19,329 nt of DNA from a virus (lineage: Duplodnaviria > Heunggongvirae > Uroviricota > Caudoviricetes): the IMG/VR virus record IMGVR_UViG_2802429248_000011, positions 1 through 19,329 of that record. One strand, written 5' to 3'. Every line of letters starts with the position of its first letter. The stretch's first letter is position 1. The position numbers were made by a program, and so were the translations under genes. The notes under the pieces are model-generated. The model made no database searches. It worked only from the letters and a program-made list of their open reading frames with translations, and was not told the origin of the DNA. Positions 1,653 to 19,329 of the stretch are shown piece after piece.

Positions 1653-1690
1653 TCCTGAAAGTCACTTGTTAAATTTCAGTGAAATTAAAA

Positions 1691-3227: not shown

Positions 3228-3286
3228 TTGATTTTATTCGCAACAAGTATTTTTTATATTTTAATAATATATTTAAAGCAGATAAT

Positions 3287-3806: not shown

Positions 3807-4105
3807 TCTACATTCCTTAACTTGAGCCTTTCGGCATAAATGGTTTGTATAACAGAAACGACTTCGTACTTAATTGGAGAGACTCAAAGAAGGAATAAGT
3901 GAATAACACCTGAAATGAGAACTGCTTTAGTAAACTACTTCGTATATCGTCTGTTCTTCAAACCGACGCAATCATTAACGCATAGTTGAACATATGAAGC
4001 AATGTTTATTTTAGACATCCAGCCATCTTCAACCCCATCAAAAAACTATAGCTTTCTTCAGGAACGTGTGTATAGTGCGCCAAGTTATCAGTATTAAGGA
4101 ATTTT

Positions 4106-4318
4106 TTGTCCCGTAAAATGACAGGAATTGTCAAAACCTTTGACTACAAAAGCGGCAAAGGTCTTATCATACCATCCGATGGCCGTATCGATGTCCAGCT
4201 GCACGTTTCTGCTCTCAATCTCCGCGATGCAGAAGAAATTACCACAGGATTACGCGTGGAATTTTGCCGAATCAATGGTCTACGTGGACCTTCAGCTGCC
4301 AATGTTTATCTTTCATGA
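4106..4318 (+). CDS. cspF: Cold-shock-domain protein, CspF/CspH-like
   Basis: 70 aa [70 protein letters not shown]. Divergent from the cspB-like gene, as in the Qin prophage arrangement. First codon is TTG with AGGA upstream. Confidence 0.85.
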
Positions 4319-4372
4319 GCTATATTAAAGCTTTTACTTTAAGCCCCATCGGATCACACATGGAGAGTTTTT

Positions 4373-4462
4373 ATGAATAACCCCGTCTGCCTTGATGACT
4401 GGTTGATTGGCTTTAAAAGCTTATGCTGTACTTTGGCCGTAATAGCTCTGCTAATAATATAA
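4373..4462 (+). CDS. Putative 29-aa hydrophobic peptide (speculative small protein)
   Basis: GGAGAG Shine-Dalgarno 8 nt upstream of the ATG; encodes [29 protein letters not shown]. Lies between the cspF-like gene and its terminator. Confidence 0.25.
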
Positions 4463-4611
4463 TAAGCAGACTCATTGTGTTTAGGGACATTGTACTGGAA
4501 GAAAACATTTTAAACATCAGGCAAATAACTAAGTCACCAGCTAAATAATAAGTTAACAGACATGGGTCCCGGGATGAGGTTCAACATCACCATTGCCCCA
4601 TTTAAAGCACA

Positions 4612-4637
4612 AAACCCGCTCATCAGCGGGTTTTCTA
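4612..4637 (+). terminator. Intrinsic terminator, plus strand
   Basis: AAACCCGC-TCATCA-GCGGGTTT followed by TTCTAATTTCTTT. Confidence 0.6.
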
Positions 4638-5049
4638 ATTTCTTTCTAAACATCAGATATACAAAGCCCATCATTGAGGGAATCTTATCCATATTTTTTG
4701 AAAAATGCAAGCATCACGTTGCCATCTTCATTGAAAAACCTTTATCGTGTTACTTTTATCAATTGCACTTCAGCATAGAGTTATCCCAGGCAGCACTTTA
4801 AAGACTTCTACATTACACACACCTTGTCTCCCCTTCTCGTCATATCTGCAAGACCGATATGCATGACGCAGTACATACGCTGAACTGCTTTATCCATCAG
4901 CATATTCTAGTGCTAAAGCGACTTCAGTAGCAGAAGCAAAATTCTGCTACTGTGCCAAACAGGAGTAAACGTCATTTTATGTAATGTTGATTGAGTGGTC
5001 ATAGTATCACCTCAATAACAGCTCTTCGCCCTATCATTGAAAGCATATC

Positions 5050-5058
5050 TGCTATAAT
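5050..5058 (+). promoter_or_regulatory. Extended -10 promoter element (TGcTATAAT)
   Basis: TGCTATAAT lies about 32 nt upstream of the ATG at 5090; no good -35 hexamer, consistent with an extended -10 promoter. Confidence 0.35.
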
Positions 5059-5089
5059 TAAAAAGCCACTTAACATCAGGACTTCAAAC

Positions 5090-5275
5090 ATGACTTCAAA
5101 TCAATCTGAAAACGAAATAGTTAATACTGTCAAAAAATATGCATCATGTGCTGACGATGCTTTGCAGGCAGGCAAAGAAAACGTTAAAGATAAATTTAGA
5201 AATTATCCACTGACTAGCGTGGTGGTCGCTCTAAGCATAGGGTTAACGCTTGGTTTTATTATTGGCAGAAAATAA
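5090..5275 (+). CDS. Small C-tail-anchored membrane protein (ElaB/YqjD/DUF883-like)
   Basis: 61 aa MTSNQSENEIVNTVKKYASCADDALQAGKENVKDKFRNYPLTSVVVALSIGLTLGFIIGRK. AGGA Shine-Dalgarno 8 nt upstream; C-terminal TM anchor ending in basic residues as in the DUF883 family. Confidence 0.55.
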   Translation: MTSNQSENEIVNTVKKYASCADDALQAGKENVKDKFRNYPLTSVVVALSIGLTLGFIIGRK

Positions 5276-5338
5276 TCTTAAGCCTCCCATAAGTCGTACA
5301 CAATCACATCTACCAATTAATGTTCCATTAGTAAAAAA

Positions 5339-5357
5339 CCACCTCCTGTGGAGGTGG
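5339..5357 (-). terminator. Intrinsic terminator (strong on minus strand, weak on plus)
   Basis: CCACCTCC-TGT-GGAGGTGG: perfect 8-bp stem, A6 on the plus side upstream (T6 on the minus strand after the stem), TTT on the plus side. Confidence 0.5.
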
Positions 5358-6403
5358 TTTAAGGATAGCAACAAAACACAACCTACTTTAAACGGCTATA
5401 TTCTGCTATATCTAAATAATAGGTTCTCTTTTATCATCCGGTGAAAAAGGGTTCAATGGTTGCCCCTCATCAGGACGCTCAACGGGCTCATCATCAGGCT
5501 TACGGTCATCAAAATCTGGATGTTCTGACATATTCCACCCTAGTATTTTTATGCAGGAAAGATTATTTACTCTTTCCGGTTGTCTTTTTTATTATCCTTA
5601 CCCTTACTATCCTCATTGTTTTTATTCCTGTCATGAGATTTTTCATTTGAATCACTTACATATAATGTATTCATGGGGACTCCAGTTTTTTAACAGCACA
5701 ATGCTGTATCTGTAATTATAGATGCAATTAATCATTATGGTATGTATGTTTCATGCACAAATCAGAAACGCATCTAGTGCTTTAATTAATATGGATTTTA
5801 TTGCTGTAGATTTACAAAAATTTTCATAATTAACCAGCAATATAAGACAAATATCTCATAACATGAGGGAAATCAAGCTCATTTAAAGCAATTTATAATT
5901 TTCATCCTACTATTTTCCCTACACTGCCAACACCAGTTTCGTCGCAACACTCTGACAAGACACCTATAAAATCAGTTTCGTTATCACCTTAATTTTCTTC
6001 ATGGGTAACAAACCGGTAATACATCGATAGCCTGATTGATGCACGTTACTGTTACCTCTTCCCTGCATCAGGATGGCTTCCCAAGATGATATGGTTAATC
6101 ACACTGGAACATTCACGCATAACCGTTTCCTTCATATCCTGCCGTTTTAGCATGTCTTTTCCCCTTCTTGTTAATATCAATGACTAACACAAATCTAAAA
6201 AAGCCAGCAATGTAAAAAAACTGCATTCACGGCAACCAGAATGGTTACCGTTCTGCACAAAGTTTATGTCCACAAAAAAACCACTCTGCGCGGCTTATTG
6301 ATATTTTCCACCGGTATGCATATAAGGCTCATCATTGGAAAACTCTTTGCACGTTTCCTTAGAAAATACAATCGTTATGTCGCCATCGTTCGGTGAAAAT
6401 CTT

Positions 6404-7156
6404 TTATCTTGTCACTTTTCTCAGTTGTGCTTCTGCATACGCTTCTTCCTGCCAGCACTTTGTTACCAGTTTATCAATGACGTCCGCATACCCCTTGTAC
6501 CACTGATAATCTGTCAGGTCCGGTACCAACTTCTGGACATGACGTCGTGCCAGTGTGGTCGGTAAACGACTAAACCTGTTTCCATTACAACGCCCACAAA
6601 TCTTATAAACCGGTACGCCATGAAGCCGGGTTCTTTTTTCATCCAGGACAATACCTTTACCCTTACACCCTCTGCACGCTGTGCTGACTTCGCCCTTACC
6701 ATGGCAATGCTGACATAGTTCCTTCCCCCATTCTTCCTTGATAACAGATTCCCCACTTCTGTAGTGTTTCACCACTTCGCGCAATACATTATGAAATCCC
6801 GTACCTGCACAATGTTCACAGCGAGCCTTACTTGCCGCAGACCTGGAATAATCAGCAAAGGCAAAATTCACAAGGTAAGGGATGATCTGTAACCGGGTTT
6901 CTTCACTCAATTTGTTCAATATCGGGTTATCCAGTGCCATCGCGTAATTGAGCAGACCTTCAATCGCAAACTGAGGGTTCTGAACACCAACTTTTGCCAG
7001 AAATAAGGCAAACCCAAGCGGTGCTTTCGACTGCACCATCCCCTGCGCAGCCATCACATCCGTAATTGTTAAACCACCAGAGCCTGTCGCCGGTGCGTCA
7101 TCGCTCAGTTTTGGTGATTTCGGGGAGTAATATTTCGGTAAGACTTCAAGGTTCAT
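6404..7156 (-). CDS. Q: Late-gene antiterminator Q (lambda Q family)
   Basis: Translation from ATG 7156 (GGAGA Shine-Dalgarno) begins MNLEVLPKYYSPKSPKLSDDAPATGSGGLTITDVMAAQGMVQSK..., closely paralleling the lambda Q N-terminus as recalled. Cys-rich zinc-binding pairs (CEHCAGTG, CQHCHGKG, CRGCKGKG, CGRCNGN). Longest ORF is 6404..7198. Confidence 0.88.
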   Translation of the reverse strand: MNLEVLPKYYSPKSPKLSDDAPATGSGGLTITDVMAAQGMVQSKAPLGFALFLAKVGVQNPQFAIEGLLNYAMALDNPILNKLSEETRLQIIPYLVNFAFADYSRSAASKARCEHCAGTGFHNVLREVVKHYRSGESVIKEEWGKELCQHCHGKGEVSTACRGCKGKGIVLDEKRTRLHGVPVYKICGRCNGNRFSRLPTTLARRHVQKLVPDLTDYQWYKGYADVIDKLVTKCWQEEAYAEAQLRKVTR

Positions 7157-7169
7157 GCTCGTTCTCCAC

Positions 7170-8165
7170 TTACGCCAGCACGCCAATTGCCAGCGCACGA
7201 TCGATAAAACGAAATATCAGCTTCAGCTGGGAGCCATACTTCTCTTCAAATGCCACGGTATCCGCATGCAGCTCGTCGTGATGCTTTCTGCACAAAGGCA
7301 ACACAAAGAGGTCATGCGCTTTTGTAGCCATTCCACCCTGACCGTGGCCTATCAGGTGGTGGGGATCATCAGCAGGCTTTCCACAACATGCACACGGCTG
7401 TGTCTTAACCCAGCGCGTGTACTTTTCGTTAACCCAGCGGCGACGTTTGGGGCGTAACATAAAAGACTCCGGCGACTCCGGATCCACTTTCAGCGCCAGC
7501 ACCTTTTTCGCTTTATCCTGGATAATGCTGGTGGCAGGAACCGAAGGCACAAGGTCACTTTCCCGGGTGACAGACGGCACAACAGGCTTCGGTAATCTCA
7601 GTGCCTTACGGGCTGCACTTTCCGGTAAGGCATCCGCCAGGTCATTACGAATCAGCCACCAGCACAGTTCCGGCATTGTCACAACGTGACTATCATCAAA
7701 ACCGAGATCCCGACGCACAACAGACAACACCCAACGGGCACAGTTATCCGTTGCCATTGATTCCAGCCGTTCCGTGAACTGATCGCGCAGCTGGTTATCG
7801 CAGTGCCAGCACAGACGGATTGCGCCCGGGGCGTGTCGCATTGTGGTCATGTTCTCGCTGTGCCAGTCGGAATGAGGCCACTGGCAGCCCTTTTCACGAA
7901 GTAACCAGCTTTCAAGACATTCCACGCCACCAGCACGACGGATCACTGCCTCATTGCGGAACACGGCCCGAACGGCAGGATCATCCGCCAGCGGTTGTGA
8001 TGCCGCCGGAACGGCACCACTGGCGAAAGATGAATAACGCTCCGGCTCAGGCTCCAGCAGGACACGCCCCTGCATAAACAGGGGCATCAGCTCTGAACCT
8101 GGCCTGAACAATACGATCCCCATACGCGGGGCAATTTCAGGGGTCAGCAGTGCTCTCACGGTCAC
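7170..8165 (-). CDS. DUF968-like protein with C-terminal HNH/zinc-finger-like Cys/His motif; start codon uncertain
   Basis: 331-aa ORF. C-terminal ...TQPCACCGKPADDPHHLIGHGQGGMATKAHDLFVLPLCRKHHDELH... resembles the DUF968 family found just upstream of Q in E. coli lambdoid prophages (memory-based). Several candidate starts. Confidence 0.7.
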   Translation of the reverse strand: MTVRALLTPEIAPRMGIVLFRPGSELMPLFMQGRVLLEPEPERYSSFASGAVPAASQPLADDPAVRAVFRNEAVIRRAGGVECLESWLLREKGCQWPHSDWHSENMTTMRHAPGAIRLCWHCDNQLRDQFTERLESMATDNCARWVLSVVRRDLGFDDSHVVTMPELCWWLIRNDLADALPESAARKALRLPKPVVPSVTRESDLVPSVPATSIIQDKAKKVLALKVDPESPESFMLRPKRRRWVNEKYTRWVKTQPCACCGKPADDPHHLIGHGQGGMATKAHDLFVLPLCRKHHDELHADTVAFEEKYGSQLKLIFRFIDRALAIGVLA

Positions 8166-8211
8166 CTCAGCGAACGGTATTGCATGAACGCAGAAGAAAA
8201 AAATTCAGCCA

Positions 8212-8469
8212 TCACGCAGTAAACTCCTTCACCAGCGTTTCAAACTGGCTTACCTGGCCTTCCAGTTCCGCCACGCAATCCACCAGCTCATCCACCGCCT
8301 TTTGTGTGCGGTGTTTTGCCTGCAGCAGATCACGCAGCGCCGGAGTAAGCTGCTTGCAGAGCGTATCCTTTGCCACGCTCGTTTTTTCCATCTGTTCAGC
8401 ACAACGAAGCATCTCCTGTGCCTGCCGACGAAGTTGTTCCGGTGAAACAGTGGTTGTTCTGTTATTCAA
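8212..8469 (-). CDS. Hypothetical small coiled-coil protein (85 aa)
   Basis: ORF MNNRTTTVSPEQLRRQAQEMLRCAEQMEK... whose TTG start overlaps the DnaB-like stop (TTGA), suggesting translational coupling; no recognised family. Confidence 0.45.
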   Translation of the reverse strand: MNNRTTTVSPEQLRRQAQEMLRCAEQMEKTSVAKDTLCKQLTPALRDLLQAKHRTQKAVDELVDCVAELEGQVSQFETLVKEFTA

Positions 8470-9866
8470 AATAAACGCTCCGTTTTACTGCCCGACATGC
8501 GTTTATTGCTGTATCTGCGCGGATTGCCCGGAGTCATGGGTGTGGAAAGAACCCGGGCACTCTCCTGGTCCACAGGCAGAAAATGTCCGTTATAAAAACG
8601 CCGGTAAATCGTCCCCAGAGAACCGTTACGTTGTTTCGTGATATTGATTTCTGCGATGCCCCTGGCCTGCGTATCCGGGTTGTACACTTCATCCCTGTAA
8701 AGCATCAGAATGATGTCTGCATCCGCCTCTATTTCTCCGGAATTTTTCAGGTCCGAGTTCATGGGGCGTTTATTGGGTCTGGATTCCACGCCGCGGGAGA
8801 GCTGGCTAAGAGCAATCAGCGGAAAACCGCCGGATTTTGCCAGGCTTTTAAGTCCCTTTGAGATTTCCCCCACCGCAAGGTCGTGACGCCCCGTGCTGCG
8901 GGTTTTAATCAGGCCGAGGTAATCGACCACCACCAGCGCCGTTTCCGGGTGTTTCATCCGGTGGTGCTTCGTGGTTGCACATATCTCATCAATGGTCAGG
9001 TTTGCCTGGTCCACCATCCAGATATTACGCCCCGTCATTCGTCCCACGCCCTGCGAGAAACGCGCCCAGTCTTCATCTTCAAAACGGGCAACAGACTTAA
9101 GACGTGATACCGGCATTCCTCCAGCCGCAGACACCATACGTTCACCAATCTGGATGTTCGACATCTCCATGGTGAACAGAAGCACACCATGCCCCTGCTC
9201 AGTCACCTTGTCGATGATGTCCAGCGCAAGTTCGGTTTTCCCCATCGAAGGACGGGCGGCAATGAATACCAGGTCTCCGGGCTCCATACCGCCCGTTTTT
9301 GCGTCCAGTTCATCAATACCGGTCATCAGCGCCCTGGATTTCTCCAGTCCCTGATTGCGGCATTCAACACGGTCGACCACTTCCGGAAGGACATCATCAA
9401 TGTGAACCGGCTGAATGACGCCCTTTCCTGTCGACAGTGTGACCATCATGTTCTGCGCATCCTTCAGAGCATCCTCGGCTGCTTCACAGGTATGCGCATC
9501 ACGTAAATTCTGTAATGCTTCAGTCAGTGTTTTTTCTGCATCGCGCAGTGCGGCATTTCGCCGCAGCGCTGCAACATAGTGCTCCAGTGAAGACTTCACC
9601 CAGGTTTTACGCCCGGTGTCGGTAATCACCGGGGCAAGTTCCGGCATCTCATTGCACAGCAGCACGGGGTCAATGACGCCGGATACGCGAGCCTGTCTGC
9701 AAATCCCCGCGTAAATATCCCTGTACTGACGCACGAAAAAGACATCCGCCGGAAGCGTGGCCAGAATATCCATCACTTCCGGATCAGCCCCACGCAGAAA
9801 AAACGCGCCAATCACGGCACCTTCCAGGTCATCGTTACGCCATGCCGGATTTGTCGTTTTTGTCAT
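8466..9866 (-). CDS. Replicative DNA helicase, DnaB-like
   Basis: 466 aa from ATG 9866 (ATGA overlap with the upstream DnaC-like stop). Walker A ...FIAARPSMGKTELAL... and DnaB C-terminal RecA-like domain motifs. Confidence 0.9.
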   Translation of the reverse strand: MTKTTNPAWRNDDLEGAVIGAFFLRGADPEVMDILATLPADVFFVRQYRDIYAGICRQARVSGVIDPVLLCNEMPELAPVITDTGRKTWVKSSLEHYVAALRRNAALRDAEKTLTEALQNLRDAHTCEAAEDALKDAQNMMVTLSTGKGVIQPVHIDDVLPEVVDRVECRNQGLEKSRALMTGIDELDAKTGGMEPGDLVFIAARPSMGKTELALDIIDKVTEQGHGVLLFTMEMSNIQIGERMVSAAGGMPVSRLKSVARFEDEDWARFSQGVGRMTGRNIWMVDQANLTIDEICATTKHHRMKHPETALVVVDYLGLIKTRSTGRHDLAVGEISKGLKSLAKSGGFPLIALSQLSRGVESRPNKRPMNSDLKNSGEIEADADIILMLYRDEVYNPDTQARGIAEINITKQRNGSLGTIYRRFYNGHFLPVDQESARVLSTPMTPGNPRRYSNKRMSGSKTERLF

Positions 9867-10753
9867 GCTGCCACACCTCTGATATGCGCACGGTAGCTTT
9901 CCCAACCAAACACCAGGCAGTTACACCCACCATCAGTAACGCGATCCACAATCCGTTCACCAATGGATTCTTTAAGCTGTTCAAACGTCAGGTTGCTGAT
10001 CAAAATTGTCGGTAAAACGCTTTCGTAACGCGCATTTATGATTTCCTGCAGGATGGTTATCTCTGTAGGCGTGCCGAACTGCACACCAACCTCATCAATG
10101 ATCAGCAGGTTCAGTGAGGCGAAATGAGCGAGAACTTCATCCTCGGTACGCTCTGAATTGTGGCGCCAGGTATTTTTCACAGCGCGGGTCAGTCGCATAA
10201 CATCCGTAATTTCGACGGTCGCCTGGTGGTGGCGAATAATATTTTTTGCCATTGATACAGCCAGATGATTTTTCCCGGTACCACAATTGCCAATCATGAC
10301 CATGCTGGTACCCGCAGCAAGACACTTCTCCCATGAACCGGCATAGCGCCGACAAGCCTCAAGATTTCTCTGTGCGTCAGCATTCACCGCCTGATAATTC
10401 TCAAACTCGCAGTTCTGGAAGCGGCGGGCAATACCAGCCCTGTCGAGTAATTCATGAACTTTCAGGATGCGTAACGCCTCCTGTACCTGATCCAGCTCAT
10501 TCGCAATGCAGGTCGGGCAACCAGACACCCGTTTGATGGTTTCCCCACGAACATCTGGCCCTTTCAACACCAGACGTGTGTATTTCCCGTGTTTCTCACA
10601 CTCAGCAGTATCCTCGCTTGTCAGCCAGTGTTCACAGCGCCACGGACGCTTCCCGACACGGGCAAACTGCATCTCCTCCTCCAGTTCCGCCCTGCGGTTG
10701 AGCAATTGCGCTTTGTCGTGTTGTGCGTAGTGTTTTTTTAACTGTTCAAACAT
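9863..10753 (-). CDS. Helicase loader, DnaC/IstB-like AAA+ ATPase
   Basis: 296 aa. Walker A GNCGTGKNHLA and Walker B LLIIDEVG; GAGGTGA Shine-Dalgarno before ATG 10753. Confidence 0.88.
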   Translation of the reverse strand: MFEQLKKHYAQHDKAQLLNRRAELEEEMQFARVGKRPWRCEHWLTSEDTAECEKHGKYTRLVLKGPDVRGETIKRVSGCPTCIANELDQVQEALRILKVHELLDRAGIARRFQNCEFENYQAVNADAQRNLEACRRYAGSWEKCLAAGTSMVMIGNCGTGKNHLAVSMAKNIIRHHQATVEITDVMRLTRAVKNTWRHNSERTEDEVLAHFASLNLLIIDEVGVQFGTPTEITILQEIINARYESVLPTILISNLTFEQLKESIGERIVDRVTDGGCNCLVFGWESYRAHIRGVAA

Positions 10754-10772
10754 TGTTCATCACCTCGAAAAA

Positions 10773-11582
10773 TCACCAGTTGAAGTTCGTTGAACCGTAG
10801 TCCTGCTCACTGAATCCCGAGATCGGGAGGCCGGTAGTTCGCCCACCTCCGGGAGCGGCTGGCTGTTGCCAAGATTCCTCGAAGTGACGATCGGGTCCAA
10901 AGAACGTCGCAGCCTGCTTCACGAACTGTGTGCCGATATTTCCGGTAGCTCGTACCCAGGCGGCATACCGCTTCACGCCATCAAGCATGGTCTCCGGTTT
11001 TATTCCCTCCCTGATACGGGCTTTCCAGGCTTTGAAGGCTGCTGACTTGGAATTGCCACCGGCACGTTTGGGATATTCCTGCCAGGCCTGTTCAAATTCC
11101 GGTGAATATTCCTGTCGGGCAGAACGCGCTGGTGCAGACGCGTCAGCGGATGCGCCAATAGTTGATTCATTGACTGGTTCTTTGACTGGTTCAAAAGAGT
11201 GACTGGTTCTGGGTGAATCTCCTGCACTACCCCCTAGTGCAACTCCTGCACCACCTGGTGAATTTGTTGCACTAGGTAGTGAATTATTTGCACTACCACC
11301 TAGTGAATCTTTTGCACCATCAAGACGAAGAAGATAAATATTGCTCGAGTTGCCTTTTTCACCTTTCCGGGAAACTTTTTTTACCAGTCCCGATTCACAA
11401 AGAGCCGTAATATGATTCATCACAGAACGTTTGCTAATCTCGCACTGATCAGCAATATGCTGATAGCTGGGCCAGCACTCGCCCTGATCGCTGGCATTAT
11501 CAGCCAGCTTAATCAGAACCAGTTTTCGCAATGGATTCCCCACACGAATTTTCATCGCTTTAACCATCAGCTCCATGCTCAT
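10773..11582 (-). CDS. Replication initiator (lambda O-like; N-terminal winged-HTH, low-complexity linker, C-terminal domain)
   Basis: 269 aa. GGGAGG Shine-Dalgarno before ATG 11582. Direct repeats with internal dyad symmetry (iterons) lie in the linker-coding part of the gene, as in lambda O/ori. Confidence 0.8.
   Translation of the reverse strand: MSMELMVKAMKIRVGNPLRKLVLIKLADNASDQGECWPSYQHIADQCEISKRSVMNHITALCESGLVKKVSRKGEKGNSSNIYLLRLDGAKDSLGGSANNSLPSATNSPGGAGVALGGSAGDSPRTSHSFEPVKEPVNESTIGASADASAPARSARQEYSPEFEQAWQEYPKRAGGNSKSAAFKAWKARIREGIKPETMLDGVKRYAAWVRATGNIGTQFVKQAATFFGPDRHFEESWQQPAAPGGGRTTGLPISGFSEQDYGSTNFNW
11223..11310. repeat. Origin-of-replication iterons (four ~20-22 bp repeats with internal dyad symmetry) inside the initiator gene
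   Basis: TGCACTACCCCCTAGTGCAA / TGCACCACCTGGTGAATT / TGCACTAGGTAGTGAATT / TGCACTACCACCTAGTGAAT in tandem. Adjacent at 11165-11215 are three copies of TGACTGGTTC. Confidence 0.7.
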
Positions 11583-11803
11583 AGAGCACCTCCCAGGCGT
11601 TTAAACATTTTTCCGGACTGAAACGCCATCAACGGATAGCTAATGGTGTAGTTACGCCCCAGTAATTCACACACAACTTTCTGGCTTTCGGTGCTGACCA
11701 GGCAAACCCGCAGAACGTGACCGTTGCTGGTGGCGAACCACTGCCCCACACGGGGGCAACGGTTGTATCGGTGATACAGGGAATTAACGATGTAGCGGAT
11801 CAT
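11579..11803 (-). CDS. Hypothetical protein (74 aa)
   Basis: GGAGGTG Shine-Dalgarno; ATGA overlaps with both the upstream ORF and the initiator gene downstream; no recognised family. Confidence 0.55.
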   Translation of the reverse strand: MIRYIVNSLYHRYNRCPRVGQWFATSNGHVLRVCLVSTESQKVVCELLGRNYTISYPLMAFQSGKMFKRLGGAL

Positions 11804-11994
11804 GGACGCACCTCCGCCGTAGTTACGTATTTAACCGGGCTACCTTTCATTGAGATGGTTTCACACATCTCTGCCGCTTTCAGTTCCGCCGTTTTTCTGG
11901 ATTTATAGCGACGGTGCCAGACAGATACATCCGTGCGAACTGATACATCGTTTCTGTATTCCGTAGTGGAGATGATGATTTCGTAACTAATCAT
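11800..11994 (-). CDS. Hypothetical protein (64 aa)
   Basis: GGGAGG Shine-Dalgarno 7 nt before ATG 11994, which overlaps the upstream stop (ATGA); MISYEIIISTTEYRNDVSVRTDVSVWHRRYKSRKTAELKAAEM... Confidence 0.55.
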   Translation of the reverse strand: MISYEIIISTTEYRNDVSVRTDVSVWHRRYKSRKTAELKAAEMCETISMKGSPVKYVTTAEVRP

Positions 11995-12653
11995 GGGCGT
12001 ACCTCCCATTGATTACGGCGAAAAGCAGTGTGATTCAGGCTGGTTTCAGCCTCATGGAATGCTCCAATGCAGCTCTCGTAGTACCGCATTGTGCGTAGAC
12101 TTAACCCAAGCTGAAGCATCATCAGGCCATCAAGGGTGATGTAATAACCACGCAGGGAGTCACCATAGATGTGGTAAGTACCCGGTATGAAGTTGCGGGT
12201 AAAAAATTCGCGCGAGCAGTTCAGATACTCGATTTTGTCGACGATGTTCTGGTGCATGCGCTTAAAGTGGCAGGCAACATGCAGGGAGAAAATAACAGCT
12301 TTGCCGTTGACGACTTCGATTTTGAGGAATGGGGAAGTTGGGACTGTAGCCATGATGGCAGCCTCCTTGATCGGTGAAAAACTTCCACCACCGGAGCTGC
12401 GAAACTCATGGGTGGTGAACTGAACAGGGTTCGCAGTACCGGCGATCAAGGAAACCGGCGAGCCTTTCGGCTCCCCTGCCCAGCCCACCATAATTCTGGC
12501 GTGCGTGAGCGCAGACGATAAAAAAGACGCTGGCGCGTCGTATATCGCCTTGATCAATTCCGGGCTGCGACCCCCGGCACCCGCTTTATAAGGTGCTGGA
12601 ACAGTGTAACGTCCCGAAATTACAGAATCAATATTTTGGCTTGAAACATTCAT
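11991..12653 (-). CDS. Hypothetical protein with Gly/Ser/Pro/Ala-rich N-terminal region and folded C-terminal domain; start codon uncertain (open frame extends to 12887; strong internal Shine-Dalgarno + ATG at 12353)
   Basis: 897-nt open frame. The first in-frame ATG (12653) lacks a Shine-Dalgarno; an internal ATG at 12353 has AAGGAGG 8 nt upstream. C-terminal domain ...YYITLDGLMMLQLGLSLRTMRYYESCIGAF... is not confidently assignable. Confidence 0.5.
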   Translation of the reverse strand: MNVSSQNIDSVISGRYTVPAPYKAGAGGRSPELIKAIYDAPASFLSSALTHARIMVGWAGEPKGSPVSLIAGTANPVQFTTHEFRSSGGGSFSPIKEAAIMATVPTSPFLKIEVVNGKAVIFSLHVACHFKRMHQNIVDKIEYLNCSREFFTRNFIPGTYHIYGDSLRGYYITLDGLMMLQLGLSLRTMRYYESCIGAFHEAETSLNHTAFRRNQWEVRP

Positions 12654-12677
12654 ATGCTTACTGGTATTTTTACTAAC

Positions 12678-12767
12678 GCAAATGTTCTTGGATGTTACTG
12701 GCTTACTTCTTTGTGAGGTTGCCTTTACTAACGTTGAGCGAGCCGGGTCACTACCCGGCTTTTTTTC
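12678..12767 (+). ncRNA. Candidate oop-like antisense small RNA (about 90 nt)
   Basis: Promoter-like TTGAAA (12641-12646), 18-bp spacer, TG-extended -10 TGgTATTTT (12662-12670), and a strong plus-strand terminator ending at 12767. Antisense to the Rha-2 stop and the region upstream of the next gene. Confidence 0.3.
12741..12767 (+). terminator. Intrinsic terminator oriented against the pR-type operon (antisense terminator)
   Basis: Plus strand AGCCGGGT-CACT-ACCCGGCT followed by T7; on the minus strand the hairpin is preceded by A7 and has no U-tract. Confidence 0.6.
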
Positions 12768-13473
12768 ACCGCTGCCAACCAATAACCTGAAATAACCCCA
12801 TTTTCGGGTGATACCAGCGAGTCCCTCGCGGTTCTGCTTCCGCCATAACCTGATGGAAAGCAGCCATAAACGGTTCCACGGCAACAATTGCGCGACGTGA
12901 CAACAATCCGTCCGGCGTCATGAACTCATGGGTGTCTGTAGGAATTTGATAAGCGTTCACCAGATTGCGGCATTTATCATCTGACAAACCGGTTTTCGCT
13001 TTCAGTTGGCGATATCCGGCATAGCCCTCACGAATGTTGCCCTTTTTGATTTGCTCAACTGTTTCGGCAACGTGGCTGACTTTTTCTTCCACCTGAGTGA
13101 TCCGTTTCTGCTGACGAACAGCTTCAAGAGCCATCGCGGCAACCATTTCGATTTCGCTCATTGGCTTACGGATCTGTTCTTCCAGTTCGCGCCAGCGATC
13201 TACTAGGCGGGCTGTGAATTCGGGACAAAGCTGTGCGACGACAATGATGCTGTCGCGCTTACCTTGTTCGCCTTCGAAGATGTAAGCACCTACATTTCGT
13301 TTTAATCCTAAGTTGTTGATTATTTCGAAATTCGCCATTGGCGCACTTCGAATAATCCCCTTATCCATGAGCCTTTCAATGCTGCGCTTAACATCTTTGT
13401 GTTGGCTGCCCACCAACTCTGCGATTTCAAGGCTGGTCATGGATGCTTTGCCGTTAAAAATTGCGGTGTTCAT
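12766..13473 (-). CDS. Rha-family phage regulatory protein (antirepressor-like)
   Basis: 235 aa. N-terminal ...MTSLEIAELVGSQHKDVKRSIERLMDKG... fits the Rha domain pattern; its ATG overlaps the cro-like stop (ATGA). Confidence 0.78.
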   Translation of the reverse strand: MNTAIFNGKASMTSLEIAELVGSQHKDVKRSIERLMDKGIIRSAPMANFEIINNLGLKRNVGAYIFEGEQGKRDSIIVVAQLCPEFTARLVDRWRELEEQIRKPMSEIEMVAAMALEAVRQQKRITQVEEKVSHVAETVEQIKKGNIREGYAGYRQLKAKTGLSDDKCRNLVNAYQIPTDTHEFMTPDGLLSRRAIVAVEPFMAAFHQVMAEAEPRGTRWYHPKMGLFQVIGWQR

Positions 13474-13733
13474 TGTTGGTCTCCTGTGGGCTTGTCATCC
13501 TCTGTGTGCGCTAAGCTTGGATGTGGAAAAAGCTCTGGTAGGTCTGGACGAAATTCATACGCTTGGATCTTTCCGTCGACAGCTGCAACCAATAACGGCA
13601 CAAATTCTGGTGAAATCTTGTTCTTGCAGTTCAACCAATCGCAGACTGTTGACTGGGCCTTTCCGCATCGCTTGGCTAAGGCTTGCTGACTTCCAAGAAT
13701 CTCAATAGCTTTCTCTATGGCTTTATGTTTCAT
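13470..13733 (-). CDS. cro: Cro-like repressor (Cro/YdaS-family HTH)
   Basis: 87 aa from ATG 13733 (GGAG Shine-Dalgarno): MKHKAIEKAIEILGSQQALAKRCGKAQSTVCDWLNCKNKISPEFVPLLVAAVDG.... Divergent from the CI gene. Longest ORF extends to 13784. Confidence 0.8.
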   Translation of the reverse strand: MKHKAIEKAIEILGSQQALAKRCGKAQSTVCDWLNCKNKISPEFVPLLVAAVDGKIQAYEFRPDLPELFPHPSLAHTEDDKPTGDQQ

Positions 13734-13755
13734 AATCGCATCTCCTATTGAACGC

Positions 13756-13784
13756 ATAATAACAACAGGAAAAGCGATATTCAA
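13756..13784 (-). promoter_or_regulatory. pR-type promoter for the cro-like operon
   Basis: On the minus strand, TTGAAT (-35), a 17-bp spacer and TATTAT (-10), about 20 nt upstream of the cro-like Shine-Dalgarno. Confidence 0.5.
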
Positions 13785-13803
13785 CGTTAAACCTAGAACA
13801 TTT

Positions 13804-13817
13804 ATCGGAAAGCCGAT
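13804..13817. promoter_or_regulatory. Palindromic operator candidate in oR (ATCGGAAAGCCGAT); a weaker related site at 13765-13778
   Basis: 14-bp dyad matching two sites beside the pL-type promoter (ATCGATAAACCGAT, ATCGGTAAACCTAT); located between divergent cI and cro start regions. Confidence 0.45.
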
Positions 13818-13852
13818 AGACTAGCCAAGATAGAGAGGGGAGGAAAATCGCA

Positions 13853-14545
13853 ATGACATTTTCAGAACGACTTGATTTAGCTATGCGCAACGCAAAATTT
13901 ACGCAAGGTAGGCTGGCCAAAGAAGTGGGTATGGCTCAGTCCAGTGTCAATCAACTACTTAACAAAGCCAACGGTTCCAGAAAAACAGTCGAAATAGCAA
14001 AAGTTTTGGGCGTTAACCCGGAATGGCTCGCATCGGGTGTTGGCCCAATGGAAATCGTGACCTCTGCAGACTCACACCAAATACGTAACATTTCTGAAGA
14101 TTGGGTTACTGATTCGTATGTCGTGGATGTTTTAGACATCAGATATAGTTGCGGACCTGGCAGTTATAACTCTGATTTTCCTGACATTGTCAGATCTATA
14201 GCGATAGAACCAGGATACGCATCAAGAGTTTTTGGCGGCAGACCAGCATCAGCAATCAAAGCAATAAACGCCCACGGCGACAGTATGAAAGGCACAATAG
14301 ACCCTGAAGACTTGGTATTTGTAGATGTATCAGTTCGCACATTTAATGGTGATGGTATATACGCCTTTACATACTCTGGAACATCGCACATCAAAAGACT
14401 TCAAAAAATCAAAGATACTCTAACGGTGATATCTGACAACCCAGCTTACAAGGATTGGGCTATCGAACCGGAAGACTTTGAACAACTTCACATTGACGGA
14501 AAAGTAATTGTCAGTTGGCCTATGACACTACACCGTTTTGCATAA
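13853..14545 (+). CDS. cI: CI-type prophage repressor (N-terminal HTH, C-terminal LexA-like S24 autopeptidase domain)
   Basis: 230 aa. N-terminal HTH (..QGRLAKEVGMAQSSVNQLL..) and C-terminal S24 motifs (..HGDSMKGTIDPEDLVFVD.. and ..IKRLQK..). GGAGG Shine-Dalgarno; divergent from cro. Confidence 0.9.
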   Translation: MTFSERLDLAMRNAKFTQGRLAKEVGMAQSSVNQLLNKANGSRKTVEIAKVLGVNPEWLASGVGPMEIVTSADSHQIRNISEDWVTDSYVVDVLDIRYSCGPGSYNSDFPDIVRSIAIEPGYASRVFGGRPASAIKAINAHGDSMKGTIDPEDLVFVDVSVRTFNGDGIYAFTYSGTSHIKRLQKIKDTLTVISDNPAYKDWAIEPEDFEQLHIDGKVIVSWPMTLHRFA

Positions 14546-14563
14546 GCAAAAATCATTTAACCC

Positions 14564-14589
14564 GCCCACTCTTAAGTGGGCTTTTTTTT
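14564..14589 (+). terminator. Intrinsic terminator after the repressor gene
   Basis: GCCCACT-CTTA-AGTGGGC followed by T8. Confidence 0.75.
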
Positions 14590-14596
14590 GGAAAAA

Positions 14597-14638
14597 ATCG
14601 ATAAACCGATTGACAGGCGAAATCGGTAAACCTATTAT
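14597..14638 (+). promoter_or_regulatory. pL-type early-left promoter with two operator dyads
   Basis: Consensus TTGACA (14610-14615), 17-bp spacer, TATTAT (14633-14638). Dyads ATCGATAAACCGAT (14597-14610) and ATCGGTAAACCTAT (14622-14635) overlap the -35 and the spacer/-10. Confidence 0.6.
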
Positions 14639-14687
14639 TATGGCATAGGTATCGAACTCACCAAAGCAATTATAGAGGATGAGAAAA

Positions 14688-15185
14688 ATGTCATCGTATA
14701 TGGGGTTACCAACAAATCAGCACGATGCTCTTGAGAATATTCAGCTCTTAGTCGGGGCTGGTGCACTACTGTATAGCAGCAATAACCCTGAGTTAATTGA
14801 ACTTGCCAGCTCCATCCTGGCTGTAACTCAAAAATATAGCCTCACAGCGTCGCGTTTATGCAAACAAAATTTAGCTATTAATTCCCAGAATCGGATTAGC
14901 ACTCAACGCGAAGCCTGCGGCTTAACAACCGCCGAACTCGCCAGGCTGCTCGATCTCGATGAAGAAATTATCATCCAGTGGGAGAGCGGAGAGTATGAAC
15001 CAACCATCAGCATGCTTATCCCACTGGCAAATATTCTTGGCTGCGATCCGATGTGGCTGTTAACTGGCGAGGTTACTCCTCCGGAGCAACCAAAAAGTGA
15101 GGAGCAGCAACACCATGACGCATCTCAACAAGTTTGCTCCTTATCTCGCGAAGCTCTTCTACGGAAGAACCAATACCAATGGTGA
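14688..15185 (+). CDS. HTH (XRE-family) protein, first gene of the early-left operon; N-terminal domain of unknown function
   Basis: 165 aa from ATG 14688 (AGAGGA Shine-Dalgarno). XRE-type HTH in residues ~95-150 (..CGLTTAELARLLDLDEEIIIQWESGEYEPTISMLIPLANILGCDPMWLLTG..). Occupies the position of N in lambda but is not N-like. Confidence 0.7.
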   Translation: MSSYMGLPTNQHDALENIQLLVGAGALLYSSNNPELIELASSILAVTQKYSLTASRLCKQNLAINSQNRISTQREACGLTTAELARLLDLDEEIIIQWESGEYEPTISMLIPLANILGCDPMWLLTGEVTPPEQPKSEEQQHHDASQQVCSLSREALLRKNQYQW

Positions 15186-15313
15186 CATAATCACCGCTTC
15201 GCCCCTCAAGGTACATGCGAACATTTTTATCAATCATTGCGGAAACAGTCTCAATATGAAAACACTTCTGAGACTCGCTATATAGCAGAACATATAAGTC
15301 AGCTGAGGAAGCC

Positions 15314-15679
15314 GTGAAAAAGTTCGAAAACATAACTGCTCTCCATGTTGATGACTTTGATTATACAAACCCGGAACTTCTCCCGGAGGTTGTAAAGGCA
15401 ATAGATGTTGCCGATATAGTGATTAGAGGAAAGAGAATCGTCAAAAACAGGCTCGCATGCACTTCAGGAGCAATGACAGAAACAACCTCACAACAAGATG
15501 ATTATGAAGGCATTTGTCTGGAGCCGGACTCATTTGCGGTAAATGTTTATCATTTATTGCATGCAACACAGGTATTACATATGTCAAGTAATCACGAAAC
15601 AAAAACACTTGGCAGCGAAATTCTGAATTTTGCATGTGAATATGCAAAAGCTGCTGCCGAAAAAGAATTAGCACAATAA
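15314..15679 (+). CDS. Hypothetical protein (121 aa)
   Basis: GTG start with GAGGAA upstream; balanced composition; the antisense frames over its body are Leu/His/Cys-rich and look non-coding. Confidence 0.5.
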   Translation: MKKFENITALHVDDFDYTNPELLPEVVKAIDVADIVIRGKRIVKNRLACTSGAMTETTSQQDDYEGICLEPDSFAVNVYHLLHATQVLHMSSNHETKTLGSEILNFACEYAKAAAEKELAQ

Positions 15680-15875
15680 CAATAAATATTCCCTGAATGT
15701 TTATTACGGTTTTATCGCCGGGGATTGTTGCAACCTTTATTCGCAGGTGATTATGTTATGACTTTCCTGAAACATAAGGCATCGTATAAAACTGCCTGCC
15801 TCATTGTACAACATGGAGATTCTTATCTTCATATAGCCAACCTGTATTTGCGCAAAGCATATGGGAGATAAGTCA

Positions 15876-16064
15876 ATGGAAGAAAAACAACAAAACATAA
15901 CACATAAAAAAGTAAGAGTGTTGCTAACCATTGAAAATGGGAAGGTAATTCACTCAAAACATCTGTTGGATAATGAATTTGTTGGCTGCATGGATACATT
16001 TTTGTTGGTGGTAAAAAGAGCGGGTTACACTATTATTCCACCAGCAAAGGAGCAAACATTATGA
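15876..16064 (+). CDS. Hypothetical protein (62 aa)
   Basis: GGGAG Shine-Dalgarno before ATG 15876; stop overlaps the next ATG (ATGA). Confidence 0.5.
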   Translation: MEEKQQNITHKKVRVLLTIENGKVIHSKHLLDNEFVGCMDTFLLVVKRAGYTIIPPAKEQTL

Positions 16065-16642
16065 ATCATTCAGAGTTCCGACCAGAAGTTACGCCACACG
16101 GTATAAAAATTGGCAATACAACCATAGATTATGCCGAGGCCGTACAGCGACTTAATGATGGTGAATACGATAATCCAAATTCTCAAGGTTTAAGAATTAT
16201 GCAGTGTATTGCTGAAGCCGATGATGCCGGATTACTGGGACGATTTTCAGTCGATATGAAAGTTGCTCAATGGCGATGGCTGTATGTGACAACATTTATA
16301 AATGAAGAGGAAGACAAGAACGGCACCATTGATATCCCTAACGATAATGGAACTACAGATCGCGCAGTTATTTACAAGGGTAAACATGGTTGCCTGAGTA
16401 TCTACCCAGGGCCACTTCGCATTGCCCTGCAAAACCATGTCGAATGGAGATTCATTGAAAAATATGGCGAAGCTGAAGGCATGGGGCGAGTTCTGTTTCT
16501 CTATCAAAAAATGCTCATCGCAGATCCTGATAATGGCTTCATTGTCTCTGCTATGGGACGAGAAGGGCTTGAACTTCTTCTGGATGAAATGATTCACGAT
16601 CTGAATACTCATGGTATGCCAGAAACACCATTGGCACATTAA
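16061..16642 (+). CDS. Hypothetical protein (193 aa), acidic
   Basis: AGGAG Shine-Dalgarno 8 nt upstream; ATGA coupling to the upstream ORF; no recognised motif. Confidence 0.7.
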   Translation: MNHSEFRPEVTPHGIKIGNTTIDYAEAVQRLNDGEYDNPNSQGLRIMQCIAEADDAGLLGRFSVDMKVAQWRWLYVTTFINEEEDKNGTIDIPNDNGTTDRAVIYKGKHGCLSIYPGPLRIALQNHVEWRFIEKYGEAEGMGRVLFLYQKMLIADPDNGFIVSAMGREGLELLLDEMIHDLNTHGMPETPLAH

Positions 16643-16644
16643 AC

Positions 16645-16926
16645 ATGTCAAATCAGAATAAAATTAATGTATTTCAGGTTGAATCAAAACATAAAACACC
16701 TGTGATAAAACACGTTCGCCGCCATACACTCATCTATACGCCAGAAGAGTTTATGGCAATTCCAATGATAAAGAAGTTTATTCGTGATAATCCCGATCAC
16801 ATTGCTATAGATAAACATAACGGAGAAATAATGTTATCACGCGAACTTGCCGAAATTTACTGTAACGTGAATAACGGTAAAAAATTGAAAAAGGCAATCC
16901 GAAAAAAATCAGGAGTAACAAAATGA
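16645..16926 (+). CDS. Hypothetical protein (93 aa) with Lys-rich C-terminal tail
   Basis: Starts 2 nt after the upstream stop and overlaps the next start (ATGA); C-terminus ..NNGKKLKKAIRKKSGVTK. Confidence 0.62.
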   Translation: MSNQNKINVFQVESKHKTPVIKHVRRHTLIYTPEEFMAIPMIKKFIRDNPDHIAIDKHNGEIMLSRELAEIYCNVNNGKKLKKAIRKKSGVTK

Positions 16927-17291
16927 ATAGCATCGAGACACAATGTTCCTCATCTGAAGTTATGAACTATGACCCGAATCTGACGTTGTACGGACGCATG
17001 GCAAAACAAACTGTTCTATTAACTTTCGGGCTATGGGAATACCGCGAAACATTCGAAGTTTCTGTCGGCGGCAATCTGACCGGACTGGATGTTATCAGTT
17101 GCGCCATTGAAAGCCTGTACGCAACGCTGCCTTATGAAGAAGTCGAGGATGAGCGCGATATCATAGCCACCATTAATATCGGCGGCATGGAATGCAAGGA
17201 TGAAAACCTGAACGGAGAACTCTGGCTTGCCGGGATGCTTATCTCGGCAGAAATCATCAGTATTGAACCCGCTACAAACATACGACTCTGA
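16923..17291 (+). CDS. Hypothetical strongly acidic protein (122 aa)
   Basis: AGGAG upstream; about 20 acidic versus about 6 basic residues (..LPYEEVEDERDIIATINIGGMECKDENLNGE..). Confidence 0.62.
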   Translation: MNSIETQCSSSEVMNYDPNLTLYGRMAKQTVLLTFGLWEYRETFEVSVGGNLTGLDVISCAIESLYATLPYEEVEDERDIIATINIGGMECKDENLNGELWLAGMLISAEIISIEPATNIRL

Positions 17292-17322
17292 AGTTCTCAC
17301 AACTCAGGGAGCAGGAGAAAAA

Positions 17323-17565
17323 ATGTTCGCTTTGATTAATCAGGGGCAACTGTATACCGATAGTGCTGGCTACCCGATAAAAATTATTCGCTGCATAAAC
17401 AACACTGTGTTGTACAGAAGAATGGATGGGCGAACACAGTCGGTAAAAATAAACGATTTTAATGAACTGTTTGAACGAATCGATCACCAGGAATACCGAC
17501 AAATTCTGGCAGAAACAGAGCAGGAAGCTCATCTGAAAAAATTACGGGTCATGAAAAGGAAGTAA
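17323..17565 (+). CDS. Small protein resembling the DUF4222 family common next to xis/int in lambdoid prophages
   Basis: 80 aa from ATG 17323 (AGGAG Shine-Dalgarno): MFALINQGQLYTDSAGYPIKIIRCINNTVLYRRMDGRTQSVKINDFNELFERI...; family assignment from memory. Confidence 0.55.
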   Translation: MFALINQGQLYTDSAGYPIKIIRCINNTVLYRRMDGRTQSVKINDFNELFERIDHQEYRQILAETEQEAHLKKLRVMKRK

Positions 17566-17568
17566 AGA

Positions 17569-17715
17569 ATGAATAAAGCGTTTGAGCTATGGGTACGCCA
17601 GCGTTACGGCAATCGCTATGACCTGACGCGAGATGTTGACGGTTTCCACTGTCGTGAAATTGTGAAACGAATGTTTGAAGTGTGGTGTTACTGTCGTGGA
17701 CTGAATGTTGTGTGA
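17569..17715 (+). CDS. Hypothetical small protein (48 aa)
   Basis: AGGAAG Shine-Dalgarno 6 nt upstream; MNKAFELWVRQRYGNRYDLTRDVDGFHCREIVKRMFEVWCYCRGLNVV; its stop overlaps the xis Shine-Dalgarno. Confidence 0.45.
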   Translation: MNKAFELWVRQRYGNRYDLTRDVDGFHCREIVKRMFEVWCYCRGLNVV

Positions 17716-17723
17716 GGTAATGC

Positions 17724-17960
17724 ATGGGCAATGTGATTCAACTGGCTCCCAATGAATGGGTTTGTGAAAGCGTTCTTATCGCAATTACCGGGCTCAAACC
17801 AGGCACAATTCTTCGGGCCCGGAAAGAATGCTGGATGGTTGGAAGAGAGTATATTCACGTATCACCAGACGGTAATCCAAAGCCTTCCAGCGAATGTATG
17901 TATAACAGAAAAGCAATAGATGCCTGGGTCGCTTCAATGAAAAACAAACAACCTGGGTGA
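17724..17960 (+). CDS. xis: Excisionase-like protein (DUF1233-type putative Xis)
   Basis: 78 aa MGNVIQLAPNEWVCESVLIAITGLKPGTILRARKECWMVGREYIHVSPDG... directly upstream of the integrase; GAGGT Shine-Dalgarno. Confidence 0.7.
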   Translation: MGNVIQLAPNEWVCESVLIAITGLKPGTILRARKECWMVGREYIHVSPDGNPKPSSECMYNRKAIDAWVASMKNKQPG

Positions 17961-18015
17961 TTTAATGCCATGAAATATGTAAGCTCGTATCGCTCTTGGG
18001 CGTCTGGAGGTATGA

Positions 18016-19329
18016 ATGGATAAAGTTAAATATCCAACAGGCGTCGAAAACCACGGTGGCACATTGCGCATCTGGTTTAATTTTAAAGGTAAACGTGTCA
18101 GGGAAAATCTTGGTGTCCCTGACACTGCCAAGAACAGGAAGATTGCCGGAGAACTGCGGACATCGGTATGTTTTGCCATCCGCACAGGAAGCTTTGATTA
18201 TGCTGCACAGTTCCCTGACTCCCCTAACCTTCAGGCTTTTGGGGTAAGTAAAAAAGAAATTACGGTGAAAGAACTTGAAGAAAAGTGGCTGGATCTGAAA
18301 CGAATGGAAATCTCTGCAAATGCATTCAATCGTTATGAATCCGTTGCAAGAACGATGGTCCCGAAAATTGGAGGTAGCAGACTGGTGTCAACGGTGACCA
18401 AAGAGGAATTGCTGTATATCAGGAAAGATTTGCTGACCGGATACCAAAATCCAACAAAAGGTAAGGCTCCGGTAAAAGGGCGAAGCGTTATCACAGTAAA
18501 TTATTACATGACGACAATCGCTGGAATGTTTCAGTTTGCTGCAGATCACGGTTACTTAGAAGCAAATCCCTTCCAGGGAATTAAGCCTCTTAAAAGAGCC
18601 AGGGCAGAGCCAGATCCGCTAACTCGTGACGAATTTATTCGCCTGATAGATGCTTGCCGACATCAGCAGACGAAAAACCTGTGGTCATTGGCTGTGTACA
18701 CAGGAATGCGTCACGGTGAACTGGTCTCCCTGGCCTGGGAAGATATCGATCTGAAAGCAGGAACTATTACTATCAGGCGCAATTATACGAAACTCGGTGA
18801 GTTCACTCTACCTAAAACTGAAGCAAGTACAAACAGGGTTGTGCATCTTATCCAGCCCGCTATCAGTGTCCTGAAAAATCAGGCTGAAATGACAAGACTG
18901 GGTAAGCAGCACAACATCAAGGTTCAACTACGTGAATATGGACGTTCAGTGAATCATGAATGTACTTTCGTGTTTAACCCCCAGGTGGTTAGAAAAAGCA
19001 AACAGGTCGGTTTTATCTACAAGGTAGATTCTATTGGCGACTCATGGGAAACAGCCATTAAGCGTGCGGGCATCAGGCACCGGAAAGCATACCAGTCACG
19101 ACACACTTATGCGTGCTGGTCATTATCTGCCGGAGCAAACCCAAGCTTCATTGCCAGCCAGATGGGCCATGCAAGTGCCCAGATGGTGTTCAATGTATAC
19201 GGAGCATGGATGACTGACAGTAATGCAGAACAGATCGCAATGCTGAATCAGAAGCTGGCAGATTATGTCCCAATGATGTCCCATGGTCACCAAAGTGACA
19301 CAAGAGACTTATTAAAATCAGTGGGTTAG
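18016..19329 (+). CDS. int: Tyrosine-recombinase integrase (phage integrase family)
   Basis: 437 aa. C-terminal catalytic region with ..RHTYACWSLSAGANPSFIASQMGHASAQMVFNVYGAW..; GGAGG Shine-Dalgarno; stop codon is the last triplet of the window, so att lies beyond it. Confidence 0.92.
   Translation: MDKVKYPTGVENHGGTLRIWFNFKGKRVRENLGVPDTAKNRKIAGELRTSVCFAIRTGSFDYAAQFPDSPNLQAFGVSKKEITVKELEEKWLDLKRMEISANAFNRYESVARTMVPKIGGSRLVSTVTKEELLYIRKDLLTGYQNPTKGKAPVKGRSVITVNYYMTTIAGMFQFAADHGYLEANPFQGIKPLKRARAEPDPLTRDEFIRLIDACRHQQTKNLWSLAVYTGMRHGELVSLAWEDIDLKAGTITIRRNYTKLGEFTLPKTEASTNRVVHLIQPAISVLKNQAEMTRLGKQHNIKVQLREYGRSVNHECTFVFNPQVVRKSKQVGFIYKVDSIGDSWETAIKRAGIRHRKAYQSRHTYACWSLSAGANPSFIASQMGHASAQMVFNVYGAWMTDSNAEQIAMLNQKLADYVPMMSHGHQSDTRDLLKSVG

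Follow-up and report, generated by a model that had tools for sequence, protein, structure and literature searches.

The 19,329-nucleotide (nt) stretch of DNA analysed here (the window; positions 1 to 19,329 of the IMG/VR virus record IMGVR_UViG_2802429248_000011) belongs to a phiP27-like lambdoid prophage of Escherichia coli, whose immunity and early-left region it covers, and carries on its minus strand, at 15073-15333, an open reading frame (ORF) for 86 amino acids (aa) which, judged by its conservation, is a genuine protein-coding phage gene. This small gene is tail-to-tail with the gene for a helix-turn-helix (HTH) protein, the first gene of the CI-controlled early-left operon, and head-to-head with an L08-like gene (hereafter L08); the small gene and L08 share 20 nt at their 5' ends, and the ribosome-binding site of each falls within the coding sequence of the other.

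An earlier note on the window, made from its letters alone, had drawn attention to this ORF, and everything that it described is present in the sequence, namely the coordinates, the translation, the GGAGAG placed five nucleotides before the ATG, the 113-nt overlap with the HTH ORF (15073-15185) and the overlap with the next plus-strand gene, i.e., L08, which starts at GTG 15314. The note had also proposed a conservation check of the minus frame by synonymous-site constraint, and the ORF passes it: in homologous regions the 86-aa frame is open and under purifying selection.

Conservation and family of the small gene

Each mononucleotide shuffle of the window contains about nine ORFs of at least 86 aa, so the length of the ORF alone is within chance and the verdict on coding rests on conservation. 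Related loci were collected by a scan of viral contigs, from which 80 loci were used; a scan of the GTDB representative genomes found no relative. Homologues of 82-88 aa, with 57-95% identity, are present in Escherichia, Salmonella and Citrobacter records, and a further lineage of enterobacterial prophages, recovered from read assemblies, has a version of the gene that is about 50% identical. The full-length ORF was found in 87 loci (among the window and 92 fetched loci), which comprise 30 distinct DNA sequences. Across the enterobacterial lineages, the gene order HTH gene, small gene, L08 is constant, beside different repressor genes, and the arrangement is shared as well: the HTH gene and the small gene point towards each other, and the small gene and L08 point away from each other, with overlapping starts.

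In the core of the gene that is free of overlap (15186-15313), the variable sites number 16, 6 and 31 at codon positions 1, 2 and 3, respectively. The ratio of nonsynonymous to synonymous polymorphism (pN/pS) in this core is 0.13 in the small-gene frame alone, the other five frames showing either values of at least 1.2 or many stop codons. Between divergent lineages, the pairwise ratio of nonsynonymous to synonymous divergence (dN/dS) is 0.06-0.37 (with dS of about 0.8 or more), and the deficit of nonsynonymous changes has a binomial P from 1e-3 to 4e-10. Homologues that appear truncated to 54 aa (e.g., P0018) most likely reflect the choice of an internal start by the gene caller: P0018 has exactly the sequence of the last 54 residues of P0003, a full-length homologue, and the gap that separates it from L08 fits the geometry of an 86-aa gene.

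Residues 8-86 of the small protein match positions 2-80 of the 80-position PHROG 6104 profile (E 5.9e-49). Its AlphaFold2 (AF2) model has the topology beta-beta-alpha-beta-alpha, with a block-mean predicted local distance difference test (pLDDT) score of at least 90 for residues 11-70. A profile search of 1.8 billion representative proteins retrieved 396 clusters, mostly of 60-110 residues, which share the motif [YF]V[LV]x[WY]SxSQxCFHIE...N...DY and, as a wider family, have neither a Pfam entry nor a solved structural relative; the conserved polar cluster of the small protein comprises S19, Q22, H26, E28, N37, R39, D48 and Y49. No signal peptide-like or membrane segment is visible in the sequence. 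The GIY-YIG nuclease superfamily was considered as a lead for the fold and rejected, the combination of significant structural or profile similarity with the catalytic Tyr/Arg/Glu set not having been found. As a guess, the small protein would bind a protein or nucleic-acid partner.

The remote relatives occur in other contexts. In betaproteobacterial prophages, the homologues are co-directional genes located directly 3' of a helicase/primase gene, with no called HTH-domain gene adjoining, and the family may be linked to replication. In the loci L103, L107 and L108 (3501-3809), the homologue comes after a DnaB_C/AAA_25 or Toprim_2/AAA_25 gene, with an overlap of 17-20 nt. In L105 (2771-3268), the small-protein domain is fused N-terminally to an HTH_3 domain in the 165-aa protein P0047, and another remote homologue follows an HTH_31 and Peptidase_M78 gene pair. 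The P0047 gene adjoins integrase and IS91-type transposase genes.

The HTH tail, the variable slot and L08

The 113 nt shared with the HTH gene are not dual coding; rather, past its DNA-binding domain, the HTH ORF reads on into the antisense of the small gene. Dual coding was sought as constraint in both frames of the overlap, and such two-sided constraint was not found: in the overlapped 3' part, the small-gene frame is still constrained (pN/pS 0.50), whereas the frame of the HTH tail is not (1.33). The frames are offset such that third codon positions in one fall on second positions in the other, and the variation tracks the third positions of the small gene. The HTH stop codon shifts among lineages, yielding overlaps of 20, 38, 59, 95, 101, 110, 113 and 119 nt, with the small ORF intact. 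The 38-residue tail is modelled as disordered (pLDDT about 40), and, in prophages without the small gene, the HTH relatives stop 6-10 residues past CDPxWLLTG (e.g., with KPTAEDTCA or KSEAKE). Given these properties, the tail is probably translated, yet a by-product of whatever sits downstream; the overlap itself is an unselected by-product of the location of the small gene.

The HTH_3 domain (PF01381) spans residues 76-127 of the HTH protein in the numbering of the 168-aa form and scores above the gathering score, in line with the XRE-HTH class that the earlier note had assigned to the 165-aa protein. Since this domain starts at residue 76, the domain that precedes it has about 70 residues, not about 90 as had been estimated there; it is modelled as a long helical hairpin with pLDDT above 90. 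In many HTH relatives (P0213, P0215, P0220, P0261, P0263 and P0298; 213-244 aa), the HTH domain is tandemly duplicated, with each copy ending in CDPxWLLTG, a motif that coincides with the recombination breakpoint.

The small gene occupies a slot of variable content. Homology between the window and its relatives breaks at 15067/15068, five nucleotides past the stop codon of the small gene, and resumes at 15227 or at the L08 start, and three states of the slot can be distinguished. In state A, that of the window, the small gene is present. In state B, the state of phiP27 and of the loci L003 and L097-L099, the small gene is preserved through codon 36, after which comes a stop codon; the initial 107 nt of the gene are retained together with all that lies upstream, and the cargo is a different gene, of 75 aa (PHROG 20080), with a GGAGG Shine-Dalgarno sequence and the same orientation as the small gene. 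The state B loci also contain a plus-strand ORF of 82 aa that is coupled to the stop codon of the HTH gene, and the insert is flanked by the short repeat CATGAAAAAC. In L003, the 82-aa ORF (2095-2343, plus strand) and the 75-aa PHROG 20080 gene (2273-2500, minus strand) are convergent and overlap by 71 nt.

In state C, represented by L004 and about a dozen complete genomes, the cassette is missing, and the stop codon of the HTH gene overlaps the start codon of L08 as ATGA (L004 2095-2105, equivalent to 15067/15314 of the window), which implies that the HTH gene and L08 are translationally coupled. In L004, 28 nt take the place of 15068-15313. The flanks of the empty, alternative-cargo and occupied slots are 92-98% identical, so that the small gene shows the variable presence among close relatives by which morons are recognized. 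The Shine-Dalgarno sequence and the first six codons of the small gene lie within the conserved 5' end of L08 and are present in all three states. The variation of the slot is typical of lambdoid mosaicism at gene boundaries.

L08 itself is tied to the HTH gene by a shared domain. The C-terminal half of L08 is homologous to the N-terminal domain of the HTH protein: PHROG 4587 matches both, hhalign aligns them with a probability of 92% (E 5e-7), and the similarity is plain in alignments of the paralogous segments (plus strand 14688-14860 of the HTH gene and 15480-15660 of L08). L08 carries this domain without an HTH domain. RefSeq starts L08 at an internal Met (15473; 68 aa), omitting 53 codons (15314-15472), the most conserved part of the family across lineages with 31% overall identity. 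Because conservation in L08 is highest in this part, above all in the N-terminal 46 residues, we favour the 121-aa form, which starts at GTG or ATG 15314. Given the shared domain and the coupling in the empty-slot state, L08 appears more likely than the small protein to be the partner of the HTH regulator and, by analogy with the action of SinI on SinR, could be its HTH-less antagonist.

Expression of the small gene and its possible roles

The explanation that we consider the most probable, with moderate confidence, combines a conserved gene and a variable slot with lysogen-biased expression from a promoter of the gene's own. The small gene would be transcribed from a weak promoter inside L08, opposing pL, and, given this orientation, would be made, as an accessory gene, mainly while pL is repressed, i.e., in the lysogen; after induction, convergent transcription from pL would shut it off. 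With full complementarity to both the ribosome-binding site of L08 and the HTH 3' end, the mRNA might also dampen leaky expression of L08 and the HTH gene. Prophage genes that are antisense to the lytic genes, have their own promoter and are expressed in the lysogen are typical accessory loci (PMC7067206).

The candidate promoter, TTGACG-17-CACTAT, is recognizable across lineages as TTGAC(A/G) (TTGATA in one) and (C/T)AC(T/G)AT with a 17-nt spacer, in a gene, L08, whose proteins are only 31-57% identical; the codons kept beneath it include invariant GTC, AAA and AAC and the rare ATA. The GGAG of the small gene is invariant in the nine lineages aligned there, and the matching Leu codon of L08 is CTC in five of six divergent lineages. 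State B, which keeps the upstream region and has its cargo in the same orientation, also fits a retained minus-strand promoter. A nearer promoter, with TATAAT at 15365-15360, was rejected, having a poor -35 element and a key A2 position that is not conserved in other lineages.

Several observations weigh against this explanation. The candidate promoter is below the threshold of the consensus scan, with a -10 element matching at 3 of 6 positions, and its conservation could be owed entirely to the L08 peptide motifs ADIVI and VKNR. No terminator was found after the small gene in the scan, and the base composition of the cassette is not unusual, i.e., gives no sign of foreign origin. Searches of Pfam, NCBIfam, PADLOC and PDB sequences and fold searches yielded nothing usable on the function of the small protein. 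The co-directional placement of the betaproteobacterial homologues after a primase/helicase gene points to an early lytic and not a lysogen-specific role, and it is because of this placement that we hold the expression model with no more than moderate confidence.

An early lytic role is also the content of the alternative that fares best, although we judge it considerably less probable. On this account, the small gene would act in replication or host takeover, and its antisense orientation would be a mere consequence of mosaic insertion; apart from the three betaproteobacterial contexts, with their 17-20 nt overlaps, the presence of the module in the inducible phages PhiR49_2 and ASU11 speaks for it. 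However, the gene opposes pL in every enterobacterial lineage examined, which would entail head-on transcription during early expression, and some relatives have an empty slot, which is therefore dispensable.

It is unlikely that the locus acts mainly as a cis-antisense RNA of the OOP/cII kind, controlling L08 translation and HTH mRNA stability, with the protein as a secondary product of a dual-function RNA. Such an RNA would cover the Shine-Dalgarno sequence and start codon of L08 as well as the 3' end of the HTH mRNA with full complementarity, and the codons under both of these features are unusually invariant. Nevertheless, the protein sequence is under strong purifying selection and its distant homologues occur in non-antisense contexts, which shows that the protein itself is the selected product; furthermore, no Rfam family matches the region, the search of 14400-15900 giving only two sub-threshold chance matches, both near the cI terminator.

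We similarly doubt that the small protein is paired with the HTH protein, be it as regulator and effector or in a toxin-antitoxin-like manner, the possibility of the former having been raised in the earlier note. The two genes are adjacent in all enterobacterial lineages, P0047, a remote homologue, is a fusion with an HTH_3 domain, and another follows the HTH_31 and Peptidase_M78 pair. On the other hand, the HTH gene persists without the small gene, its slot being empty or filled with other cargo, and the small-gene family occurs without a called HTH-domain gene adjoining; the proposed regulator/effector pair is weakly supported at best. The arrangement is convergent and not the co-directional operon of a type II toxin-antitoxin or known defence system, and there were no toxin-domain matches; PADLOC returned no match for the small protein, L08 or the 75-aa cargo, and only generic HTH models for the HTH protein.

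Finally, it is highly improbable that the minus ORF arose by chance and that the long-tailed 165-aa HTH protein is the sole real product, even if such lengths are common in the shuffled window and the HTH gene is all that RefSeq annotates here, because constraint acts on the minus frame but not on the tail frame, several lineages truncate the HTH tail and leave the minus ORF intact, and the homologues, the open frame, the confident AF2 core and the wide family all contradict it.

Setting, significance and comparison with known systems

On the plus strand, the CI gene is followed by a terminator, a promoter, the HTH gene, L08, small genes, and xis and int (Table 1). Chromosomal prophages in complete genomes share 97-98% identity with the window, and the phages phiP27, PhiR49_2 and ASU11 are identical to it in part. 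A pair of operator-like sites, read from the sequence and from the inverted repeat I1, overlaps both the -35 and the -10 element of the pL-type promoter, and a similar site, TATCGGAAAGCCGATA, is found at 13803-13818, between the cI and cro-like genes; these sites are presumably bound by the repressor.

Table 1. Features of the small-gene locus and of the adjoining control region, in window coordinates
Feature	Position	Strand	Evidence or remark
S24/LexA-type CI repressor gene	13853-14545	+	Peptidase_S24, 7.5e-17
Intrinsic terminator 3' of CI gene	14564..14589	+	7-bp GC-rich stem, then T8 run
Operator-like site 1, 16 bp	14596-14611		AATCGATAAACCGATT; overlaps promoter element
pL-type sigma-70 promoter	14610..14638	+	TTGACA-17-TATTAT; 11/12 consensus positions
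Operator-like site 2, 16 bp	14621-14636		AATCGGTAAACCTATT; overlaps promoter element
HTH ORF, 168 aa	14679-15185	+	165-aa form from ATG 14688, AGAGGA 9 nt upstream
Conserved core of HTH gene	14688..15067	+	N-terminal helical domain and 434/P22-c2-type HTH ending CDPMWLLTG
Variable cassette, HTH domain to L08 start codon	15068..15313		blastn breakpoints and junction alignment; absent in empty-slot relatives
Unconstrained C-terminal tail of HTH ORF	15068..15185	+	Residues 128-165; antisense of small gene 3' end
Small protein gene, 86 aa, PHROG 6104 family	15073..15333	-	Translation MFSNFFTASSADLYVLLYSES...
L08-like gene, 121 aa	15314..15679	+	PHROG 5451, 1.4e-82; start GTG 15314
Shine-Dalgarno sequence of small gene	15339..15344	-	GGAGAG, then CAGTT, then ATG; within L08 codons 9-11
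Candidate promoter of small gene	15416..15444	-	TTGACG-17-CACTAT; inside L08, about 105 nt upstream of start; inferred

Elsewhere in the window, on the cro side, Rfam matches above the gathering score to C4 antisense RNA (12408-12495, minus strand, 85 bits) and isrK (12520-12596, minus strand, 57.6 bits) lie just downstream of a Rha-family gene. This pair looks like a P1/P7-type c4/antirepressor module or a Gifsy-1 IsrK-like module in a lambdoid prophage. A full-length Rfam match to the cspA thermoregulator 5' untranslated region (3526-3967, minus strand, 158 bits) implies that the window also includes a cspA-like cold-shock gene.

Standard annotation misses this conserved small phage gene. 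It occurs in 218 of 5426 complete genomes of E. coli, strains of sequence type 131 (ST131) included, and is full length in 151; in all 40 E. coli RefSeq genomes sampled across the ranking, the small ORF is unannotated, with the HTH gene or nothing in its place, and it is likewise unannotated in the two sequenced phages that carry it (PhiR49_2 and ASU11). A literature search found no paper on the locus. The overlap offers a clean worked example of a long antisense overlap that resembles dual coding and in which one strand only is selected, and such cases are useful for calibrating claims of overlapping genes. In addition, the locus points to a recombination slot immediately downstream of the first early-left gene, and delineates a candidate three-gene module, consisting of the HTH regulator, a protein that shares a domain with it and the small gene in antisense orientation. 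The prophages concerned belong to a family that is common in E. coli and Salmonella and includes relatives of Shiga toxin (Stx) phages such as phiP27.

By sequence, the small protein is a member of PHROG 6104, with a match over the whole profile. This family has no Pfam or NCBIfam model and no solved structure, and the antisense placement and the overlaps are outside its definition. The earlier note had put the HTH gene in the N position, which is correct as a map position: like lambda N, it is the first gene downstream of a repressor-controlled leftward promoter. The likeness ends there, as the HTH protein has a 434/P22-c2-type HTH domain and, in Pfam, PHROG and NCBIfam, neither an N-family match nor an Arg-rich motif, which bears out the statement of the same note that it is not an N-like antiterminator. 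With SinI/SinR, the HTH protein and L08 have in common a domain shared between regulator and partner; here this domain is a long helical hairpin located N-terminal to the HTH, and the heteromer is putative.

Two further systems bear on the antisense arrangement, namely lambda OOP RNA and cII, on which Krinke and Wulff are said to have reported in 1987, and the face-to-face pR/pL promoters of coliphage 186, reportedly described by Callen, Shearwin and Egan in 2004. The present locus shares with both the convergence on the 3' end of an early regulator gene beside the immunity region, and the likeness may extend to antisense pairing and transcriptional interference. Unlike the locus described here, which encodes a conserved protein and has no Rfam match, OOP is a non-coding RNA of 77 nt that has a terminator of its own.

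A further parallel is offered by prophage accessory loci (morons) antisense to lytic genes, such as STMMW_20121 of the Salmonella prophage ST64B (PMC7067206): the small gene, too, opposes a lytic operon under repression, and its presence varies among close relatives. Compared with morons of this type, the small gene has a promoter that is a candidate only, no terminator or compositional signature was found, and the arrangement is old, co-diverging with its neighbours and not looking recently acquired. The moron likeness of the locus is seen as well in the alternative cargo, which is carried in the same slot and in the same orientation.
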